DNA from: Eledone cirrhosa
Taxonomy: Eukaryota
Assembly: GCA_964016885.1 (NCBI GenBank)
Contig: OZ024743.1
Coordinates: 112,654,001-112,718,000, forward strand
Length of the DNA stretch: 64,000 bases
Reading direction: 5' to 3'
The position numbers and the translations under genes were made by a program. Below are positions 19,013 through 62,768 of the stretch, piece after piece. Below the pieces are notes generated by a model. The model searched no databases. It was not told the DNA's origin and saw only the letters and a program-made list of their open reading frames with translations. Numbering within the stretch: position 1 is the first letter of the stretch; every line of letters begins with the position of its first letter.

Positions 19013-19176
19013 AAGGGTTAAAATACTGGAGCGTGTTGGAGTTAAACACCCTCTTCGTACTATAGATAATAAAAGGTATAGCTCAATGTAGTTAAACAGA
19101 GCCGAAAAATTAAAATCCATTTTTAATGGATTACATTAAAACGAACAGACACACACATATACATATATATACATAT
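19013..19176 (-). mobile_element. Tail and one arm of an older hairpin element; partner arm at 30186-30247
   Basis: ATCCATTTTTAATGGATTACATTAAAACGAACAGACACACACATATAC from 19115 is the exact reverse complement of the sequence ending at 30247. Confidence 0.8.
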
Positions 19177-19195
19177 ATATATATATATGTATATA

Positions 19196-19276
<81 letters not shown>

Positions 19277-19289
19277 GTATATATATATT

Positions 19290-19416
<127 letters not shown>

Positions 19417-19432
19417 CTATATATATATATAC

Positions 19433-19463
<31 letters not shown>

Positions 19464-19542
19464 AAGGACGTAAAATAAGAAATTATTTTTTTAAAAAAAT
19501 TAAAAAAAAAAAAAAAAAAATTTTTTTCTTACTTAAATTTTC

Positions 19543-19624
19543 ACTCCAACTAATTAGTTTCTGCAATGGGATAAAGACAGTTACGTAATCCAACTGTTGA
19601 GAATTCATTGCGTCATCAGGAAGT
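19543..19624 (-). ncRNA. Hammerhead, inverted unit 1
   Basis: Reverse complement of 20762-20843. Confidence 0.82.
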
Positions 19625-20111
19625 CTATTCTCAGTTAAGTCTCCAGGCAATGCGCGGACACTGGCGGCTCATATAAAAATAATAATAATTCGGTAGATCG
19701 AACAGCTTGCGAGGACTGGATTCTATGTACCGAAATTCTCACTGCTTCAAGTCAAATGGCCGATTCTAAAGAATCAATCACGTGACACAGAGGCTAGTTA
19801 GAAGGAATGGGATGGTAAGATGACTGACGCCTACTAACACCCCAAAAAAAATTTTTTTTAGAAGTGGTTTTGACAAGTTTGCTCGACAAATCAGTGATTT
19901 GGAGATAAATATAGATAATTTAATATATCAACTAACATAAGCGCACAGATGCACGCCCATGCCAGCAAATACACAGGTTATGTCATAGTACCTAGGTGGT
20001 TCAATGCAGGAGAATGCAGAACAATAATATAAAGGACGTAAAATAAGAAAATATTTTTTTAAAAAAATTAAAAAAAAAAAAAAAAAAAATTTTTTTCTTA
20101 CTTAAATTTTC

Positions 20112-20193
20112 ACTCCAACTAATTAGTTTCTGCAATGGGATAAAGACAGTTACGTAATCCAACTGTTGAGAATTCATTGCGTCATCAGGAAGT
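20112..20193 (-). ncRNA. Hammerhead, inverted unit 2
   Basis: Reverse complement of 20762-20843. Confidence 0.82.
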
Positions 20194-20761
20194 CTATTCT
20201 CAGTTAAGTCTCCAGGCAATGCGCGGACACTGGCGGCTCATATAAAAATAATAATAATTCGGTAGATCGAACAGCTTGCGATAAGTAAGAAAAAAATTTT
20301 TTTTTTTTTTTTTTTTAATTTTTTTAAAAAAATATTTTCTTATTTTACGTCCTTTATATTATTGTTCTGCATTCTCCTGCATTGAACCACCTAGGTACTA
20401 TGACATAACCTGTGTATTTGCTGGCATGGGCGTGCATCTGTGCGCTTATGTTAGTTGATATATTAAATTATCTATATTTATCTCCAAATCACTGATTTGT
20501 CGAGCAAACTTGTCAAAACCACTTCTAAAAAAAATTTTTTTTGGGGTGTTAGTAGGCGTCAGTCATCTTACCATCCCATTCCTTCTAACTAGCCTCTGTG
20601 TCACGTGATTGATTCTTTAGAATCGGCCATTTGACTTGAAGCAGTGAGAATTTCGGTACATAGAATCCAGTCCTCGCAAGCTGTTCGATCTACCGAATTA
20701 TTATTATTTTTATATGAGCCGCCAGTGTCCGCGCATTGCCTGGAGACTTAACTGAGAATAG

Positions 20762-20843
20762 ACTTCCTGATGACGCAATGAATTCTCAACAGTTGGATTA
20801 CGTAACTGTCTTTATCCCATTGCAGAAACTAATTAGTTGGAGT
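20762..20843 (+). ncRNA. Type I hammerhead ribozyme with extended stem II
   Basis: Stem I ACTTC/GGAGT; CTGATGA; stem II GCAATG/CATTGC with distal ACAGTT/AACTGT hairpin; GAAA; palindromic CTAATTAG in stem III; GUU triplet at 20836-20838. Confidence 0.82.
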
Positions 20844-21329
20844 GAAAATTTAAGTAAGAAAAAAATTTTTTTTTTTTTTTTTTTAATTTTTTTAAAAAAA
20901 TATTTTCTTATTTTACGTCCTTTATATTATTGTTCTGCATTCTCCTGCATTGAACCACCTAGGTACTATGACATAACCTGTGTATTTGCTGGCATGGGCG
21001 TGCATCTGTGCGCTTATGTTAGTTGATATATTAAATTATCTATATTTATCTCCAAATCACTGATTTGTCGAGCAAACTTGTCAAAACCACTTCTAAAAAA
21101 AATTTTTTTTGGGGTGTTAGTAGGCGTCAGTCATCTTACCATCCCATTCCTTCTAACTAGCCTCTGTGTCACGTGATTGATTCTTTAGAATCGGCCATTT
21201 GACTTGAAGCAGTGAGAATTTCGGTACATAGAATCCAGTCCTCGCAAGCTGTTCGATCTACCGAATTATTATTATTTTTATATGAGCCGCCAGTGTCCGC
21301 GCATTGCCTGGAGACTTAACTGAGAATAG

Positions 21330-21411
21330 ACTTCCTGATGACGCAATGAATTCTCAACAGTTGGATTACGTAACTGTCTTTATCCCATTGCAGAAACTAA
21401 TTAGTTGGAGT
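21330..21411 (+). ncRNA. Hammerhead, next tandem unit
   Basis: Identical to 20762-20843. Confidence 0.82.
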
Positions 21412-21611
21412 GAAAATTTAAGTAAGAAAAAAATTTTTTTTTTTTTTTTAATTTTTTTAAAAAAATATTTTCTTATTTTACGTCCTTTATATTATTGTTC
21501 TGCATTCTCCTGCATTGAACCACCTAGGTACTATGACATAACCTGTGTATTTGCTGGCATGGGCGTGCATCTGTGCGCTTATGTTAGTTGATATATTAAA
21601 TTATCTCTATA

Positions 21612-21665
<54 letters not shown>

Positions 21666-21943
21666 CATATATATACATATATATACAGTTGAGCAGTTGA
21701 AGTATAAGGACGTGTTTTTACTTCTCTCCCCGAGTAAGCAGCAAGTCACACAGCCACAAAACAAAACCACAAAACAAAACCAAACAAACAAAAATTGACC
21801 GGTTAATACATTTACATACATCTATATTATTATATATTTGAAACCACGTGTTTTCCAACTTGTGAGTACATTTTCCTTTAACTACAAATTATTATTATAT
21901 ACTTTCGTCTTTTCATTAATTTAATTAATTTCAAATAACCAGA

Positions 21944-21976
<33 letters not shown>

Positions 21977-22095
21977 CTCATATTTATATATATACTCTTC
22001 TCACTCACACACAAGAAAAACAAAAAACAAAAATAAATAAAAAAAATATATATATATTGAAATACTTAACTAAAATACACACACTCAAAACTAGA

Positions 22096-23250
22096 ATGGC
22101 TAACCAGCAAAAATCCAAACAGAACTGGTCTGATAATGAAATCGACATTCTAATAAACACATGGCATTGCCTTACCCAAACAGAAGACATAGATGCTTCA
22201 TCTCTGAACGACATTGCTAAACGTACAGTTCAATTTTTGAAAACTCGATCTGAACAACAGATTCAAGATGAATTAAAGCAAATCGAAATTGCTTTTAAAT
22301 TAATCAATAAACATTTGGATAAACTACGGTGTGTTTTTTCTTCGAATGCTGTCCAGCAGCAGCAACAACAACAACAGCAGCTACAACGGCAACAACAACA
22401 ACAGCTACAACAACAACATCAACAACAGCAACAACAACAACAACGACAACAACAGTGTGAACCACTCCTTGATTCATCAACAATGGCCGATCTACTAAAT
22501 GAAACTATTGACCTCCCAGTAGCCTCTGTCTCACAGCATGAAACGCCACATCCTTTCTCTGGCCCAGCAGTCCAATCATCACCACTGCCAACATCTTCTC
22601 TGCCTACTACTACTACTACTACTACAACATTTTTGTCTACTGCTATGTCAAGGAATTTACCTTCTAATACCAGAACAAGAACTCTCCCTCCCACAGTCCA
22701 CAAAGGTCGTCAAATCCTACTCAAACCATCATCTACACCTCTCACAACACACACACCCACATACCCACCCACTCGAAACCCCATCATTTGCCGCTACTCT
22801 CTACGCTATAGAATATGTACGGATAGTGGCTGCAAATTCACCCATTTACCTAGGACAAAACGATCTATCCCCACAAACAGCCACCACCATAATACATACT
22901 CTAATTTAACACCAACACAACTACCAATAACTCAAACAAGGAATCCACAAATCTGCCGCTTTTCCCTGCGAGACAGATTGTGTTTAGACCGGGATTGTCC
23001 CTTTACCCATCTCCCGGGGAACCGTCGGACAAATGAAAATAAAATTAAAAATAAAAGCAAAAACAAAAACCATAACCTACATAAAAATAACCACTACCAC
23101 AGTCACCAACAGTCTTCTAAACAGGAAACTTCTTCCTCTTTTTTAGCCATAATGAATCTGGCAAAAGAACTGGAAAAAAACATTCGAGCTATCACCCAGC
23201 ACCACCCTCCACTATCACCCCACTGCACAAACTCCCATTGCTGCCATTAA
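22096..23250 (+). CDS. LINE ORF1: SANT/Myb-like N-terminus, polyQ, two C-x8-C-x4-C-x3-H zinc fingers
   Basis: ATG at 22096; WSDNEIDILINTW...RSEQQIQDELK; CRYSLRYRICTDSGCKFTH (22789-22845) and CRFSLRDRLCLDRDCPFTH (22954-23010). Confidence 0.8.
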   Translation: MANQQKSKQNWSDNEIDILINTWHCLTQTEDIDASSLNDIAKRTVQFLKTRSEQQIQDELKQIEIAFKLINKHLDKLRCVFSSNAVQQQQQQQQQLQRQQQQQLQQQHQQQQQQQQRQQQCEPLLDSSTMADLLNETIDLPVASVSQHETPHPFSGPAVQSSPLPTSSLPTTTTTTTTFLSTAMSRNLPSNTRTRTLPPTVHKGRQILLKPSSTPLTTHTPTYPPTRNPIICRYSLRYRICTDSGCKFTHLPRTKRSIPTNSHHHNTYSNLTPTQLPITQTRNPQICRFSLRDRLCLDRDCPFTHLPGNRRTNENKIKNKSKNKNHNLHKNNHYHSHQQSSKQETSSSFLAIMNLAKELEKNIRAITQHHPPLSPHCTNSHCCH

Positions 23251-24480
23251 CAAACAAACAAATTAACAACACACCAAAACAATTAAAACCATCCACTCTC
23301 GCCTCTACATTTTTGCTTAACGCCCAAGGCATCAGCCCTTCCACCAATACTCAAAAATGGAAGATCAAATTCCTGGAGGACTGGATTGATGTCCATCCAA
23401 ACCACATCCCCTTCTTCGTCCTCACTGAAACCCATCTCAGTAACCTCCACTTGGAAGCCGAGGTGAAAGTGAAAAATTTCAAAGCCATCCGTGCTGATCG
23501 CGCTGGCAGAAGAAAGGGCGGAACTGCCATTTATGTCCATAATTCTTTCTCAACAGAGGCTATGAACATATTCACTAATGGATACTGTGAAGCAGTCACT
23601 CTATTCAGTCAAACCAACAACCTATTAGTAGTTGGGCTCTATAGGCCACCCCAAACGCCTGTACCATGCTTCAAGGAATGCCTCAACAGCATAAAGTGTT
23701 TCATCCAAGAGTGTCACCCTGACAACATCTTAATGATGGGGGACTTCAACCTCCCCGGAGTTGACTGGTCCACAAACAGCCTGCCACCAGGTTCTTCTGC
23801 CTCAACCTCTGACAGGGAAGCAGTGGAATCGTTTCTTGACTTCATGGATGATTTTTTCCTATCCCAACTGGTGCTCGAACCAACGAGGTGCCACAAAAAC
23901 GTCCTAGACTTAATTTTCAGCAATCACACTGACAATATCCACAATATTGCAGTGAAGAAAACTCTACTCTCTGATCATGACATGGTTCTCTGTGATCTGA
24001 GATTCCGTCCAATATACAAACCCAATGTCATCTCTCCTGTCCATCCGTTTGACGCTATGGATTTCCACAATGCAAACTGGGAAGCGATCAGTCATGATCT
24101 TGCACATGTCGACTGGTCCTTCACGCACACTCATACACCCACTAACATCAAAAAGTACTGGCAGACATTTGTGGACACTGTTACAAACATATGTGCTAAA
24201 CACACCCCATTAAGAACTATAAACAAATCTAAGAGCAGAATCCCTAGAAATAGAAAAACGCTCATCAGAAAAATTAAGAGAACGAACAAAAAAATCAACA
24301 AGCTGAAATACTGTCAGCAGCAACACATCAACTTGACTGCCATTTCATCACTAGAGATTAAAAAACATAACCTCCAAAACAACATAATGTCCCTCATCAA
24401 CAATCAGAGAAGAGCTGAAGAGGCCTGGGCCATTGAGAAGATCAAACTCAATCCCAAAGTGTTCTTTTCATTTGCAAAAA
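23121..24480 (+). CDS. LINE ORF2 N-terminal part: APE endonuclease (frame open from 23121)
   Basis: LLNAQG, LTETHL, DR...KGG, LYRPP, MGDFNLP, PTR..NVLDLIF, SDHDMV. Confidence 0.92.
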
Positions 24481-26256
24481 AAACACAAAATCACTGGCTC
24501 TACTGTTGGCCCTCTAATTGATGAAAATGGCACTCTTCAAGACAATGCTAAAACCATGGGTGAGATACTGCAGAAACAATACTGCTCTGTTTTCAGCAAT
24601 CCTGATATGGCCGATCTGGGCTGTATCGGCGATGTTACTCCCCATTACACCTTATCGGACATAACGTTTGGCGCCCCTGATGTCTTAGCGGCAATAAAGG
24701 AAATCAAGCATAATTCAGCAGTAGGTCCCGATAGGTTCCCTGCTTGTGTCTTGAAGGCGTCTCAACACCAACTTGCATCTCCTCTTGCCAATCTGTGGCG
24801 GAACTCACTGGATGCTGGATATGTGCCAGAAAACCTTCTATCCCAGTCTGTTGTCCCAGTTTTCAAAAAGGGAAACAAATCCCTTGCCGTGAATTACCGT
24901 CCAATCTCACTCACCTCTCATATCATTAAGGTATTTGAGAGAGTGGTGAGATCGCGAATGACCCACTTCCTTGAGAGTAACAATATGCTGAACTCCAACC
25001 AGCATGGATTCCGTAATGGAAGGGATTGCCTGACGCAGCTACTGCATCACTTTGATGACATTTTGAGAGCCTTGGGAGAGGGTTCCAACACTGATGTTAT
25101 CTACCTTGATTTCAGCAAGGCCTTTGACAGGGTTGATCATAACATTCTAGTGAGAAAGCTGTCCAATATTGGTGTCACTGGAAAGCTGCTGCAGTGGATC
25201 AAGAGCTTCCTGTCAAACAGAACCCAACATGTTGTAGTTGAAGGAGTCAAATCCAGCCCAGCCAAAGTCAGTAGTGGGGTCCCACAAGGCACTGTGTTGG
25301 GCCCACTTCTCTTCATCATCTATATTAATGACATCACTGACATCATCAAACACAGCAACATTAAAATTTTCGCTGATGATTCCAAGCTCCAAAAGGTCAT
25401 CAATGGCGTGGATGACCGGATAAGCCTTCAGTCAGACCTACTGGCTGTTACCCAATGGGCGGAAAAGAACAACATGTTACTGAACGAAGACAAATTCGAA
25501 CTGATCCACTTTGGAAAAGAGGATGCTCTGAAACTCCCGTACTCCCTTCCCTCCGGGGAAACTCTCGTGGCATCTAACAACATCAGAGACTTGGGAGTAA
25601 CCGTGGACAGCAACATAAGCTGGACCACGCATATAAGCAGCAAAGTTGACATGGCCCGCAGAATGTGTTCCTGGATCCTCAGAACCTTCCAGTCGAGAGA
25701 TTCCCACACCATTATCCTTCTCTTCTCTACTTTTGCCCGACCACACCTTGAATACTGTTGTCCACTGTGGTCTCCCCACACGAAACAAAGTATCATGAAA
25801 CTTGAAGCTCCTCAAAGGGCAATCACGAAAAAGATAGATGGCATGTCAGACCTTGACTACTGGGGTCGATTAGAAAAGCTGAAACTTTACTCACTCCAAC
25901 GTCGCCGTGAGCGTTATATTATCTGCATGATGTGGAAAATGTTCCATCATCACTGCCCAAATGATGTTGGCATCGCCTTCAAGATACACCCAAGGCTTGG
26001 GCCCCGTGCTATCCGTCCCATTCAAAAATCTAAATCGCAACACATAATAACAATACGGCACAATTATTTCACCTCAATCGGCCCTGCTCTCTTCAACATC
26101 ACACCAGGACACGTCAAAACAGAAACTGACCACACAAAATTCAAGAAGTCTTTGGACAAATTCCTCCAAGTAATCCCGGACAAACCACCCACACCCGGAT
26201 ATGTCTCCGCAAACAGTAATTCTCTTCTCGAATGGGCCATGGTGCCCAAATCCTGA
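24481..26256 (+). CDS. LINE ORF2 C-terminal part: reverse transcriptase; joined to the APE part if one A is removed from the A8 run at 24476-24483
   Basis: NYRPISLTS, QHGFR, YLDFSKAFD, GVPQGTVLGPLLFIIYIND, FADDSKL, RDLGV, LEYCCPLWSP, LYSLQRRRERY. Confidence 0.95.
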   Translation, partial: KHKITGSTVGPLIDENGTLQDNAKTMGEILQKQYCSVFSNPDMADLGCIGDVTPHYTLSDITFGAPDVLAAIKEIKHNSAVGPDRFPACVLKASQHQLASPLANLWRNSLDAGYVPENLLSQSVVPVFKKGNKSLAVNYRPISLTSHIIKVFERVVRSRMTHFLESNNMLNSNQHGFRNGRDCLTQLLHHFDDILRALGEGSNTDVIYLDFSKAFDRVDHNILVRKLSNIGVTGKLLQWIKSFLSNRTQHVVVEGVKSSPAKVSSGVPQGTVLGPLLFIIYINDITDIIKHSNIKIFADDSKLQKVINGVDDRISLQSDLLAVTQWAEKNNMLLNEDKFELIHFGKEDALKLPYSLPSGETLVASNNIRDLGVTVDSNISWTTHISSKVDMARRMCSWILRTFQSRDSHTIILLFSTFARPHLEYCCPLWSPHTKQSIMKLEAPQRAITKKIDGMSDLDYWGRLEKLKLYSLQRRRERYIICMMWKMFHHHCPNDVGIAFKIHPRLGPRAIRPIQKSKSQHIITIRHNYFTSIGPALFNITPGHVKTETDHTKFKKSLDKFLQVIPDKPPTPGYVSANSNSLLEWAMVPKS

Positions 26257-26331: not shown

Positions 26332-26412
<81 letters not shown>

Positions 26413-26934
26413 GGAACCAGTAAGACCCCGACAGCTGAGCTCAAGCCGTTTCGACGGCTAATTCTGGACTAAATGAAAATTTATCCTGGTATTTAAATAG
26501 CCGATCTTCTCAAGGGGTAATTCCATATATGGTCAAAGTGATTGTCAAAAATCAGTAGTAATTCTGTGGTTGCAAATTAGTAGGGGAGATGGTGGCTAAA
26601 CCAGCCAGTAGGAGAAAGAGGGGAGGGGGTGGAGTAGCCCCAATCAAGCGTTTGTAGTGCCAGCTACAGCTGGGCATGAGGTCAAAGAAGATACAAGGGA
26701 GGGGGAGGGGGAGGAAGTCGGAACGGTAGGTGGAACAATGGGGGTAGAAATATATAGGAAAGAGAGTGAAGAAAAGCAAATAAGTGTAAAGAAAAACAAA
26801 TGAGTGTAAAGAAAAAAGTAAAGTAAATTAAATTCTACGACCTAGGTCTCTAGCTATTGTTAGTCTGGAATAAATAAATAAATAAAGAAAGAAAGAAGTA
26901 AAGAAAGAAATAAAGAAATAACGAAATAAGTAAT

Positions 26935-28701
26935 ATTATTAGCAGCCTAAACTCCACCTATAAAAAGGCCAACCACTCTTGCATCGAGGACATAAATCGA
27001 GATGGACAACAAATCACCTCCAGCCTCGGGGTCGCCGACCGCACGGAACCTCTAGACCCACGGACACCATACTTCACACTGAAGGACCATAAATCCGATT
27101 TTGACCGTAAACCCTCTATCAGGCTTATTAACCCAACGAAGTCCGACATAGGGAGAATCAGCAAAAAAATCCTAGACCGCGTGATACCAAAAGTCAAGCA
27201 ACACACCCGACTTAGCCTATGGATCAACACCCAGGAAGTAATCTCCTGGTTCAGCAATATGGAGGATAAACGAGAAACTAAATTCATACAGTTCGACATA
27301 GAGAGCTACTATGCTTCAATCACCTTACCGCTACTTACTGCCGCCTTGGACTTCGCCAAAACACTTGTGCCCATCACCGACCAGGAAAGAAAAATCATCC
27401 TCCACGCCAGGAAGACAGTCTTACTCTTTGACGACTCTAAATGGATAAAAAGAGCTCCCGACTCACCCTTCGACGTCAGCATGGGCGCCACGGATTCGGC
27501 GGAGGTCACAGATCTTATAGGATTATTCCTAATAGCCAAACTCACTGATATGTTTCCTGCATTCGGTGGTGGATTGTACCGTGATGATGGGCTCCTTACC
27601 CTTAAAGGGTACAACCCCAGTAGTACAGATCGGGACCGGAAACAATTAACCAGATTCTTCCGCGACTGGGGATTTAAAATAACCATACAAACGTCCCTGA
27701 CCAGAGTAAACTTCCTGGACGTGACCCTCGACCTCGAAAACGACCTGTACTACCCATACAGGAAACCTAATGACAATCTGCACTACATCCACCGCCGATC
27801 AAACCATCCTAGGAACATCACAAACAACCTGGTCAAAAACATCTCCCTCCGCATATCCCGTTTGTCAGCTAATGAGCGGATATTCGATGAACATGCGCCT
27901 TATTACAACCAGGCCCTCAAGCGGAGTGGTTTCCGGGAGGAAATATCCTACTGTCCAGCTCCCATTAGCGGAACCAGCAGGAGACACCGCCGCTCACGCA
28001 ATGTAACATGGTTCAATCCTCCCCACAACGCAGAGGTGACAACTCCCATCGGGAAACTATTCTTTAGGCTCATTGAAAAACACTTCCCATTACAACACCG
28101 CTACCACAACATAATTAACAAAAATACCATCAAACTCTCTTACAGCACTACACCAAACTTCGCACAAAACATCGTCTCCTCTAACAACAAAAAACTCAAC
28201 CCCGATGGCAGAAATAACCTAAATAGCAGTGGAGAACCGACCAGGAGGTGTAACTGCCCGGATAGATCTATCTGCCCACTCGACAATAGATGCAGAGACC
28301 GTAATGTGATCTACCAGTGCAACGTGAGGACGGATACCTCCAACAAAGCCTATATAGGACTTACCGCATGTGACTTCAAGACCCGGCTATACCAACATAG
28401 ACATACCTTCCGAAACCCGGCCCGGCGTCACGCTACTACACTCTCGGGCCACATATGGGACCTCAAGGACAACAACATCACCTATGATCTCACTTGGAGA
28501 TTACTGTCCAGAGCCAATTCTTACACGGGAGGACGCCGTCCGTGCAATTTATGCTCGGAGGAAACTTTACAAATGCTGTTTTCGACGGACCAACACCTAA
28601 ACAAGAAAGATGAACTGGTTACTACATGTAAACATAGATTGCGTAGGACTTACCTCGCCCTCAAACCCCATAATGACCCGGGGGGTAGACTAGGGCTATA
28701 A
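26935..28701 (+). CDS. PLE RT plus C-terminal GIY-YIG endonuclease, uninterrupted, 5'-truncated
   Basis: FTLKDHK..RLINPTKS, QFDIESYY, DVSMGATD, GLYRDDGL, VNFLDV, WFNPP, CNC..CPL..C, VIYQC...AYIGLT, CNLCSEE, LNKKDELVTTCKH. Clade assignment is from remembered motifs and is less certain than the PLE call. Confidence 0.93.
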   Translation: MISSLNSTYKKANHSCIEDINRDGQQITSSLGVADRTEPLDPRTPYFTLKDHKSDFDRKPSIRLINPTKSDIGRISKKILDRVIPKVKQHTRLSLWINTQEVISWFSNMEDKRETKFIQFDIESYYASITLPLLTAALDFAKTLVPITDQERKIILHARKTVLLFDDSKWIKRAPDSPFDVSMGATDSAEVTDLIGLFLIAKLTDMFPAFGGGLYRDDGLLTLKGYNPSSTDRDRKQLTRFFRDWGFKITIQTSLTRVNFLDVTLDLENDLYYPYRKPNDNLHYIHRRSNHPRNITNNLVKNISLRISRLSANERIFDEHAPYYNQALKRSGFREEISYCPAPISGTSRRHRRSRNVTWFNPPHNAEVTTPIGKLFFRLIEKHFPLQHRYHNIINKNTIKLSYSTTPNFAQNIVSSNNKKLNPDGRNNLNSSGEPTRRCNCPDRSICPLDNRCRDRNVIYQCNVRTDTSNKAYIGLTACDFKTRLYQHRHTFRNPARRHATTLSGHIWDLKDNNITYDLTWRLLSRANSYTGGRRPCNLCSEETLQMLFSTDQHLNKKDELVTTCKHRLRRTYLALKPHNDPGGRLGL

Positions 28702-29816
28702 CACCCCACTTGCTGACTTTGCAATGGGTACCCCCTGCTTGCCAAGGGAGACGTAAGATCTTCTTTGTATTCTTTTATCGCTTCCTTTATTTCCTTCCTT
28801 CCCCCCTCTCTCCTTAGTCCTTCTACCCCAGCTCTTCTCCTTTGTCGACGTCTTTTCTCGCCCACCCGAGGCTGCCCTTTGGCCCCTTGTAGCCTTAGTA
28901 CCCCTACCCCCTCCCCTAGTCTAGGATAGATTTGGCGGACTCCGCCCTTTATAGCAGTTGGTTTAGACCCCGGATACTTGTCCCCTTTTTCCGACCGCTC
29001 CCACTATTCTCTGTGCCCTCTATATTTCTTAGTGGCACTTATGCCTTATTTTTTCGTTTCAGTATTTCTTTCTTCGCTTTTCTTTTGGGCGGGCTGGATT
29101 CTGAATTTATTCTTCCGTATTCTACCTTTACTTCGTACGAACTTTCATGTAGCTTGTTTTAGATCTTTTAGAGTTAGCATTAGTATATATTTTTCTCGGG
29201 ACTCAGAATTATTATCTCGTATTAGTTCACTTTGCTGCACTGGGTGGTGGCTGGAATTGTACCCGGGATGGAAACCTTTATTGTCTATTTCGTGGTAGTC
29301 TCTTTAGTATTTTGGCCCCTTTTGTTGACCCGTCACCGTATCATTTACGTACTTATACCTCTTAAAAGGGTCCTCGCCTAATCCGTCCCACCTAGTTCTT
29401 TTACTTATTTCGTTATTTCTTTATTTCTTTCTTTACTTCTTTCTTTCTTTATTTATTTATTTATTCCAGACTAACAATAGCTAGAGACCTAGGTCGTAGA
29501 ATTTAATTTACTTTACTTTTTTCTTTACACTCATTTGTTTTTCTTTACACTTATTTGCTTTTCTTCACTCTCTTTCCTATATATTTCTACCCCCCATTGT
29601 TCTACCTACCGTTCCGACTTCCTCCCCCTCCCCCTCCCTTGTATCTTCTTTGACCTCATGCCCAGCTGTAGCTGGCACTACAAACGCTTGATTGGGGCTA
29701 CTCCACCCCCTCCCCTCTTTCTCCTACTGGCTGGTTTAGCCACCATCTCCCCTACTAATTTGCAACCACAGAATTACTACTGATTTTTGACAATCACTTT
29801 GACCATATATGGAATT

Positions 29817-29910
29817 ACCCCTTGAGAAGATCGGCTATTTAAATACCAGGATAAATTTTCATTTAGTCCAGAATTAGCCGTCGAAACGGCTTGAGCTCAG
29901 CTGTCGGGGT
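29817..29910 (+). ncRNA. Type I hammerhead with variant U3-A8 core
   Basis: Stem I ACCCC/GGGGT; core TTGAGAA; stem II GA(T)CGGCTA/TAGCCGTC with inner GGATAAAT/ATTTAGTCC hairpin; GAAA; stem III ACGGC/GCTGT around palindromic TGAGCTCA; GUC at 29903-29905. A mirror copy lies in the inverted arm. Confidence 0.8.
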
Positions 29911-30001
29911 CTTACTGGTTCCTATTATCCACTCTACTACCTCAAGTATTGAGTACTTTGGTGCGTTATGGTCCACCTGGTTCCTTACCACATTTCCTTC
30001 G

Positions 30002-30080
<79 letters not shown>

Positions 30081-32658: not shown

Positions 32659-32739
<81 letters not shown>

Positions 32740-32740
<1 letters not shown>

Positions 32741-32934
32741 GAAAAAGTATGACCCCGACGGCAGAGCTCAAGCCGTTTCGACGGCTATTTCTGGACGTCC
32801 AGAAATAGCCGTCGAAACGGCTTGAGCTCTGCCGTCGGGGTCATACTTTTTCCTATTTCCCACACTACTACCCTTAGTATTGAGTACTCTGGTGCGTTAT
32901 GGTCCATCTGGTTCCTTACCACAATTCCTTTGTT
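32740..32934 (+). mobile_element. Family A mini-PLE insertion
   Basis: Perfect ~113-bp palindrome centred on GGACGTCC, plus tail. Confidence 0.9.
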
Positions 32935-34423: not shown

Positions 34424-34488
<65 letters not shown>

Positions 34489-34489
<1 letters not shown>

Positions 34490-34683
34490 GAAAAATTATG
34501 ACCCCGACGGCAGAGCTCAATCCGTTTCGACGGCTATTTCTAGACGTCCAGAAATAGCCGTCGAAACGGCTTGAGCTCTGCCGTCGGGGGTCATACTTTT
34601 TCCTATTTCCCACTCTACTACCCTTAGTATTGAGTACTCTGGTGCGTTATGATCCATCTGGTTCCTTACCACAATTCCTTTGT

Positions 34684-34715: not shown

Positions 34716-35232
34716 AAAATAACAGGAAGGTGGACTGGTGTAAATCCTTGAAAGGTTTATTATACTATGATCATTTCAATGACCGGGTTAAGTATGAATC
34801 CGGTGACATTATCAGGTAACAAAATATAACAAAGGAATATAATAGATAAAATCCATGGGGCTAAAATTCAGAGACAAGAGGCCGACCGACTATTTAGCAG
34901 CTTCTACCTCACTCGGTCTCTGATTTTCAGCCCCATGGATTTTATCTGTTATATTCCTTTGTTATATTTTTTTTTACTTGATAATGTCACCGGATTTTAA
35001 TTAATCAGGTCATTGAAATGATCATAGTATAATAAACCTTTAAAGGATTTACACCAGTCCAGCCTCCTGTTATTTTATAATAATTAACTCTGTACTCGCA
35101 CCACCAACTACACAAACGAAGAGCGGTGAGTTGCATTACGTTGGGTGCTCTCCATAATATTACATCCAGGCTGACCATACGGAAGAGCCAGTTCTATCTA
35201 TCCAGTGGTGAACCAACAAACCTAAATAAATG
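34711..35232 (+). mobile_element. Inverted-arm-plus-tail PLE end (family D) with hammerhead remnant at 34975-35029
   Basis: Arms 34711-34875 and 34916-35081; TAC-TTGATAA-stem II-GAAA-TGATCA-TA-GTA. Confidence 0.72.
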
Positions 35233-35247
35233 TATATATATGTATAT

Positions 35248-35431
35248 GTCAGGACCCCGACAGCAGAGCTCAAGCCGTTTCGACGGCTATTTCTGGACGA
35301 ACTAGCCGACGAAAAGGCTTGAGCTCTGCCGTCGGGGTCCTGACTTTTTTCCTATTACCCACTCTACTACCCAAAGTATCGAGTACTCTGGTGCGTTATG
35401 GTCCACCTGGTTCCTTACCACACTTCCTTCG
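35248..35431 (+). mobile_element. Family A mini-PLE insertion
   Basis: Same arms and tail as the other copies. Confidence 0.88.
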
Positions 35432-36672: not shown

Positions 36673-36731
36673 ACGAAGGAAATGTGGTAAGGAACCAGGT
36701 GGACCATAACGCACCAAAGTACTCAATACTT
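36672..36731 (-). mobile_element. Family A tail-only insertion
   Basis: Reverse complement of ~29944-30002 within (TA)n. Confidence 0.85.
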
Positions 36732-36818
36732 ATATATATATATATATATATACACTTTCTCTCTCTTTACTCTCTCTATATCTCTCACTTCACTCTCTCT
36801 ATATCTCTCTCTTCACGT

Positions 36819-62544: not shown

Positions 62545-62716
62545 ACAAAGAAGGTGTGGTTAGATACCAGATGGACCATAACGCACCAGAGTACTCGATA
62601 CTTAGGGTAGTAGAGTGGGTAATAGAAAAAGAGTCACGACTCCAACGGCTGCGCTCGGCCGTTTCGACAGCTAGATCTGACACCAACGGACGGAGCTCAG
62701 CCGTCGGGGTCCTGAC

Positions 62717-62722
<6 letters not shown>
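62544..62722 (-). mobile_element. Family A mini-PLE insertion (older)
   Basis: Reverse-complement tail plus diverged arms in (TA)n. Confidence 0.85.

Positions 62723-62768
<46 letters not shown>

Follow-up and report, generated by a model that had tools for sequence, protein, structure and literature searches.

Paired end points of Penelope type in a retrozyme-like repeat family of Eledone cirrhosa

By what enzyme, and from what template, does a non-coding repeat with a hammerhead motif in every unit come to lie as two facing arrays within a (TA)n tract? The question is raised by a locus in the genome of Eledone cirrhosa, in a stretch of 64,000 nucleotides that we call the window (assembly GCA_964016885.1, contig OZ024743.1, forward-strand positions 112,654,001–112,718,000; coordinates below count from its first letter). 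Animal non-LTR retrozymes, their RNA circles, the proposal of a Penelope-like partner and a model in which circles are copied into tandem cDNA have all been published (PMC7229834, PMC4209133; here and below, published work is cited from those parts of each source that were accessible). Li, Clavereau and Pollet (2026; bioRxiv 10.64898/2026.07.22.740005) derive retrozymes from pLTRs, give unit lengths of 51–972 bp and propose local amplification. A first-pass annotation of the window, made from its letters alone, had suggested a young, large-monomer retrozyme copied from circular or multimeric RNA by a TA-targeting Penelope-like element (PLE). Here we follow this suggestion through the 3.0-Gb genome. 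Evidence from across the family ties the retrozyme to the Penelope mechanism; it leans towards rolling-circle copying of an RNA circle but falls short of proof.

Architecture of the locus

The insertion consists of two arms. The left arm (19461–20281, minus strand; 821 bp, 1.45 units) is 5′-truncated at 20281, and its 3′ end, which we call site A, lies against (TA)n. The right arm (20282–21607, plus strand; ~1.33 kb, 2.3 units) is head to head with the left, and its 3′ end, site B, likewise abuts (TA)n. The right arm extends ~117 nt past the end point of the left arm; this tail (21490–21607, plus strand) runs from site A to site B, ~201 nt past the cut, and contains a long covarying hairpin (21549–21598, plus strand; internal copy at 20981–21030) that ends ~9 nt before site B. 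The target tract occupies 19157–19463 on the left and 21608–21685 on the right, and because both flanks are (TA)n a target-site duplication is unreadable. An arrangement of ~1.45 inverted and ~2.3 direct copies with a tail in (TA)n, as first annotated, is what the mapped arms contain.

The unit recurs with a period of 568 bp in the direct arm and 569 bp in the inverted arm, and its copies are 99.2–99.8% alike. The cut-to-cut monomer, the predicted circle, spans 568 nt (20839–21406, plus strand). Family units are mostly 557–561 bp in length, and the greater length in the window is owed to a run of T19–20. As published monomers span 51–972 bp, this size is not unusual. Each of 21 diverse units contains an invariant 12-nt block with an E-box-like CACGTG (21167–21178 and 20599–20610 in the window, plus strand), which we take to be a possible internal promoter element.

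A young and dispersed non-coding family

Exact matches to a 20-nt motif spanning stem III and stem I number at least 9,366 across the genome, and a 25-mer of the youngest subfamily has 814 (control 0 in both cases). A search with the whole unit gave at least 152 matches in the 40 candidates scored out of 943, the full-length ones being 97–100% identical. We examined 35 other clusters from the unit search as a first set, 59 of the first 63 clusters on one contig (C1) together with one locus found by a 23-mer carrying A at unit position 518 (A518), and 29 further loci picked by the youngest-subfamily 25-mer. Subfamilies are ~67–100% identical to one another and unit lengths range from 522 to 586 bp, with a GC content of 0.35 and no LTR organisation. 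The longest ATG-initiated frame in 21 diverse units encodes 27–86 amino acids, in keeping with the non-coding unit of the first-pass annotation; its reading as a young, multi-locus repeat is likewise supported. Arms comprise unit sequence alone, up to the other arm or the flanking DNA, at 124 loci and in the window. The genome-wide search and tabulation of end points that had been called for revealed a dispersed family with fixed 3′ and variable 5′ ends. The window locus is a recent insertion of this abundant non-coding repeat, which is likely to be of retrozyme type; as an element it is ordinary for that class.

Older subfamilies have shorter arrays, with one or two hammerheads per arm. They also show a splice-donor-like GTAAGT just past the cut (unit positions 13–25) and, ~100 nt on, a pyrimidine tract ending in AG (unit positions ~95–115), possibly a relic of a pLTR intron. 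Short-read contigs of one public run (X19) carry the unit at very high depth; in contigs of four of the 24 listed public runs (X19 among them; X22–X24: 2 records each) there was no contig spanning the window locus and there were no joints.

A hammerhead under structural selection

The first-pass annotation listed four essentially identical 82-nt type I hammerheads, and a motif scan located four letter-identical copies, which are the only matches to a canonical CUGANGA type I pattern on either strand of the 64-kb window. Two are in the direct arm (20762–20843 and 21330–21411, plus strand), with cuts predicted after 20838 and 21406, and two are in the inverted arm (inner copy 20112–20193 and outer copy 19543–19624, minus strand). 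Stem I of each is 5 bp long and is followed by a CUGAUGA core; stem II, of 6 bp, continues past an internal loop into another stem, after which come GAAA, the palindromic stem III (3 bp) and the GUU site. The variants aligned below all preserve the core, and a conserved C·A mismatch closes their stem II. Tandem units that each carry a full type I hammerhead motif, as in animal non-LTR retrozymes, are present.

Folding and an Rfam scan, the checks proposed at the outset, gave a different outcome. Rfam returned no hammerhead match to the motif, neither at the gathering score nor at E ≤ 10, a convenience test that lies outside the published definition of a retrozyme; the long stem II is the likely explanation. 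The minimum-energy fold of a single motif (−15.5 kcal/mol; z −0.35 to −0.83) differs from the active fold (−10.8 kcal/mol), a gap of 4.7 kcal/mol, and the stem III palindrome as a duplex is worth −10.8 kcal/mol. Evidence for a ribozyme comes from covariation.

We aligned 51 of 67 distinct hammerhead variants, excluding 16 that were near-duplicate or broken. Paired cells make up 95.8% (86.9% in shuffled alignments), and two-sided changes number 99 cells against 32 shuffled, counts that are inflated by relatedness among the variants. The covariation score is 0.276, compared with 0.115 for shuffled and at most 0.081 for slid alignments. Pair 24–74 of stem II occurs as all four Watson–Crick types without a break; the invariance of stem III and of the 3′ side of stem I was left uncounted, as loci had been chosen by that motif. 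Judged from sequence, the hammerhead is under structural selection, with compensatory change over ~30% divergence, and self-cleavage is predicted. The tail hairpin covaries as well (43 sequences, 8 of 50 tails being left out; 97.5% paired; two-sided change at 5 of 21 pairs), and the monomers of four loci or subfamilies, taken singly as circles, fold better than their shuffles (z −3.9 to −6.9; four units, 25 shuffles each).

One end at each of two sites

Read on the hammerhead strand, arm 3′ ends concentrate at two sites: among 153 arms, 73 end at A, 73 at B and 7 are unclassed. Site A lies 84 nt past the cut at the window locus and 53–78 nt past it in most others, with site B ~117 nt further on. 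Head-to-head pairings combine one of each in 45 of 51 cases; none is A+A, four include an unclassed arm and two are B+B, the last (L034 and L043) being formed by arms of two neighbouring insertions from different subfamilies. The 29 further loci contain ten two-armed insertions, all A+B, so both sets together hold 55 A+B two-armed insertions and no A+A. Within the unit, each site is followed by TATA-like letters, a match of 4–5 nt to the (TA)n target.

Work in vitro with a purified Penelope-like protein has shown cutting and extension on both strands of the DNA, with two internal start sites on the RNA, the interval between which equals the genomic tail (PMC11167929); inverted 5′-truncated copies with a one-sided tail of 30–40 bp are a known Penelope signature (PMC8557442, PMC3846280). 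Because the A/B end rule matches two starts of reverse transcription and priming on both strands, Penelope-like mobilisation is strongly supported, and we consider it very probable that an enzyme of this kind mobilises the family. With the arms inside (TA)n, the Penelope geometry and TA targeting of the first reading stand.

The 5′ ends are scattered across the unit (77 mapped). The direct array of the window begins 12 nt past the cut, as had been noted, and this offset was considered as a sign of processing; we reject it as such, given that 5 of 77 ends fall within the first 15 nt past the cut where 2.1 are expected (P = 0.057). A rougher mapping placed 8 of 69 ends within the first 13 nt, one of them an artefact. 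A mild enrichment in the first 60 nt (16 of 77, 8.3 expected; post hoc) hints at some linear templates. Seven of the 77 ends, with differing partner arms, fall in a 5-nt interval at unit positions 485–489 (window ~20765–20769), where the catalytic core begins (P = 0.003 in a scan); the reverse transcriptase may pause there. The two arms of a locus are uncorrelated in length (ρ = 0.09, 29 loci), so the idea of two enzymes stopping together is unsupported.

The neighbouring Penelope-like family and the search for a partner

A 5′-truncated PLE of Hydra type lies at 26410–30002, with a C-terminal GIY-YIG domain and a CxCX5C linker; it has one arm inverted and lies in (TA)n with a tail of 77 nt. 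Its family is very young, all 150 listed matches being 99–100% identical, and its hammerhead (cores at 29822, plus strand, and 26513, minus strand) has a U3–A8 pair in place of C3–G8. Among loci hand-picked for tandem spacing (L215–L230; for example, G000:C1:437195500-437215499 and C1:91471500-91491499), the family follows the two-end rule at nine of nine two-armed loci, with ends 17–24 and 97 nt past the cut. Complete 3.53-kb units stand there in tandem, and the two arms share haplotypes that extend across the locus; two of these arrays show an alternating ABAB pattern of variants, and a third haplotype is also present. A second coding GIY-YIG family (L165, L166, L170, L174 and L176) likewise has a U3–A8 hammerhead core.

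The geometry common to the retrozyme and the neighbouring PLE had been offered as evidence of partnership. The common two-end rule holds, but the two have no sequence in common (best E 0.85) and differ in hammerhead and tail length, so this family is rejected as a demonstrated partner. A tblastn search with the PLE protein of the window, and the unit profile, gave no coding partner at 95 retrozyme loci. The unit profile also gave no kin in 50 GIY-YIG loci, a small sample of 10,595 candidates (30 returned and 20 picked for long frames, out of 150 listed). No arm continues into an ORF in 11 young copies that seem to stand singly and were taken with 4 kb of flanking DNA, and an ORF with reverse transcriptase and GIY-YIG domains between repeats is absent from the retrozyme loci examined; at none of these is the unit the pLTR of a coding element.

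Other elements in and beyond the window deserve mention. Pieces of ~60–200 bp related to the PLE tail (query 29862–30002), some of them palindromic, lie at 1059–2054, 32739–32933, 34488–34683, 35223–35431, 36673–36732 and 62545–62747 and are likely to be stump insertions. A LINE at 21925–26256, whose apurinic endonuclease and reverse transcriptase are spread over two frames that overlap (Pfam PF14529, PF03372 and PF00078), terminates against (TA)n near 26335. Further tandem hammerhead repeats occur at L095:1727-2349 (311 bp), L166:6000-6459 (459 bp) and L175:7268-7779 (511 bp), so the genome contains several more retrozyme-like families.

The template

Nearly all arms (76 of 77) run through at least one cut site, a count in which short arms are under-sampled because loci were picked by unit similarity. 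The template was therefore a circle, an uncut multimer or a nicked molecule whose nick was jumped. In the window, every unit of both arms has A518 and the T19–20 run; the remaining young loci in the first set all have G at position 518. The A518 23-mer has nine genomic matches, four at the window locus and five in minority units of older subfamilies, so that a donor array for the window haplotype was not found in the assembly by this search. The two arms of a locus differ less from one another than arms paired by shuffling do (1.36 versus 1.94; 0 of 5,000 shuffles, 11 loci).

Non-homopolymer variants in 107 units of 25 arrays comprise 24 that are fixed, 17 singletons and 2 of intermediate frequency; 16 of the fixed variants are private, all from one locus (L134). 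In seven of ten further arrays, substitutions are fixed in all units, and one array consists of a rearranged 582-nt unit. All 236 recognised junctions neither gain nor lose letters at the cut, in a scan that requires intact anchors and would miss badly altered junctions. One haplotype per locus and seamless junctions fit many copies of one monomer made at insertion; a homogeneous donor array on another haplotype, absent from the assembly, would be expected to give the same one-haplotype pattern. Three arrays are mosaic: a second haplotype occupies 3 of 13 units in L036, A518 occurs in 2 of 6 units in L134 and a variant occurs in 1 of 2 units in L233. Homopolymer runs jump in single units at L050, L055, L057, L075, L244 and L245 (A24, T24–25 and T29; T9–T18 within one array), as from polymerase slippage in each round or from assembly error.

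Our preferred reading, to which we assign a probability of about 0.6, is a single insertion made in trans by a Penelope-like reverse transcriptase/endonuclease that repeatedly copied a predicted monomeric RNA circle. Arrays would be transcribed, and the hammerheads, probably paired into dimers by the palindromic stem III, would cleave the RNA into monomers of ~560 nt that a host ligase could then circularise. To judge from the end points, the enzyme would cut both (TA)n strands, and the two DNA 3′ ends would prime cDNA at RNA sites A and B, one at each, helped by the TATA match. Synthesis of each cDNA would continue across the ligated cut site, the number of rounds varying and slippage occurring in homopolymers, and the two truncated cDNAs would be joined head to head, as an inverted arm and a direct arm longer by the 117-nt tail, which is the geometry observed. 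More tentatively, and at slightly less than even odds, Penelope-like enzymes would insert by double rolling-circle reverse transcription: the two ends of the (TA)n break would share one RNA circle as template, start from two fixed sites marked by hairpins and each go round it several times. Every insertion would then arise ready-made, as a head-to-head multimer of one molecule, and the same would hold for the 3.5-kb coding element next door; the retrozyme circle would then be the actual transposition intermediate.

Several observations count against copying of a circle. The energy gap to the active fold and the missing Rfam match have been described, and only one of nine predicted frog retrozyme dimers cleaved in vitro (bioRxiv 10.64898/2026.07.22.740005). 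The mosaics, the uncorrelated arm lengths and the excess of 5′ ends past the cut point the same way; mosaic and ABAB arrays call for a multimeric template, a switch between templates or unequal crossing-over at a later time. TATA-matched priming at A and B is also unlike the non-homologous start reported in PMC11167929.

Much of this would suit linear multimers with local amplification: the same Penelope-driven insertion, templated by an uncleaved read-through transcript of a donor array, with long arrays growing by unequal crossing-over in the manner of satellites. A linear template has been proposed for vertebrate retrozymes (bioRxiv 10.64898/2026.07.22.740005) and, for an anole element in vitro, the reaction mainly used unprocessed RNA and did not need the hammerhead (PMC11167929); the weak fold of the monomer and the mosaic and ABAB arrays are consistent with it. 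We nevertheless think it unlikely, at perhaps one chance in a few, as 41 of 43 variants are fixed or singleton without nesting, the arrays in the two arms share a haplotype, with one arm reaching 5.1 kb, and arrays are shorter, not longer, in older subfamilies. The absence from the assembly of a donor with the window haplotype, and the retention of the hammerhead through compensatory change, argue in the same direction.

Less likely again, and in our view improbable, is a cleaved, unligated monomer held closed by stem I, or several such monomers, with the reverse transcriptase jumping the nick or switching template at the cut. End-to-end jumping is known for R2 enzymes, and the mild excess of 5′ ends just past the cut and the second haplotype within L036 would suit this course of events; the recognised junctions without letters added or lost, and the single haplotype at most loci of a family that holds many, do not. 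That the unit is the mere terminal repeat of a coding PLE, or the array an assembly artefact, is largely refuted and very improbable: the geometry is that of coding elements and no contig of the public runs spans the locus, but mapped arms hold unit sequence only, the unit profile on the 50 GIY-YIG loci gave only two separate retrozyme insertions, and ends, junctions and haplotypes vary by locus yet obey rules, with the unit at very high depth in short-read contigs.

Comparison with known systems

The retrozyme class, its unit size, its link to Penelope elements and the circle model have all been published before. In the literature found, there was no report of paired end points or locus-wide haplotypes for retrozymes, although supplements and subscription papers may hold some; as far as that literature extends, the family-wide end-point and haplotype evidence is newly described. 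A Penelope-like mobiliser and the circle as template have been proposed since 2014–2020, on the basis of co-occurrence and pLTR similarity. The window family bears the mechanical fingerprint of such an enzyme, a strict rule of one A and one B at its ends. Its arrays look born whole from one monomer, contrary to the satellite-growth view in the accessible text of the 2026 preprint. With two RNA sites, a hairpin and a target named, the circle model is testable in an existing in vitro system.

Like the animal non-LTR retrozymes of Cervera and de la Peña (2020; PMC7229834) and of Li, Clavereau and Pollet (2026), the family is dispersed and made of tandem non-coding units, in each of which there is one type I hammerhead, with a GC content under 50%, no LTR and a unit length within 51–972 bp. 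The axolotl HHR_Amex2 likewise has a mismatch at the base of stem II, U·U where the window family has C·A; its cleavage is weak as a single motif and efficient in the dimer (PMC7229834). Compared with the published descriptions, the window family differs in its extended stem II (~50 nt), and the accessible text of both papers describes neither fixed paired end points nor inverted arms with a tail nor locus-wide haplotypes; the 2026 preprint favours local amplification once an insertion has taken place; circles and some cleavage have been shown by experiment for published animal retrozymes, whereas the window family is known from its sequence.

With endonuclease-bearing PLEs the family has in common head-to-head 5′-truncated arms with a tail at one end only (PMC11167929, PMC8557442, PMC3846280), ends downstream of the hammerhead cut and a (TA)n target, as in the Hydra clade. 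The extra base after the core, at stem II, is typical of Penelope-type hammerheads, which also have a palindromic stem III (PMC4209133). Unlike PLEs, the family has no ORF, a tail of ~117 nt rather than 30–40 nt, start sites with a short TATA match to the target, and many-unit arrays in both arms. It also resembles MRC1 of the Chlamys clade, a non-autonomous Penelope-type element with multicopy head-to-tail arrays (PMC8557442); as described there, however, that clade is without canonical hammerheads, and MRC1-type elements resemble the 3′ end of their partner.
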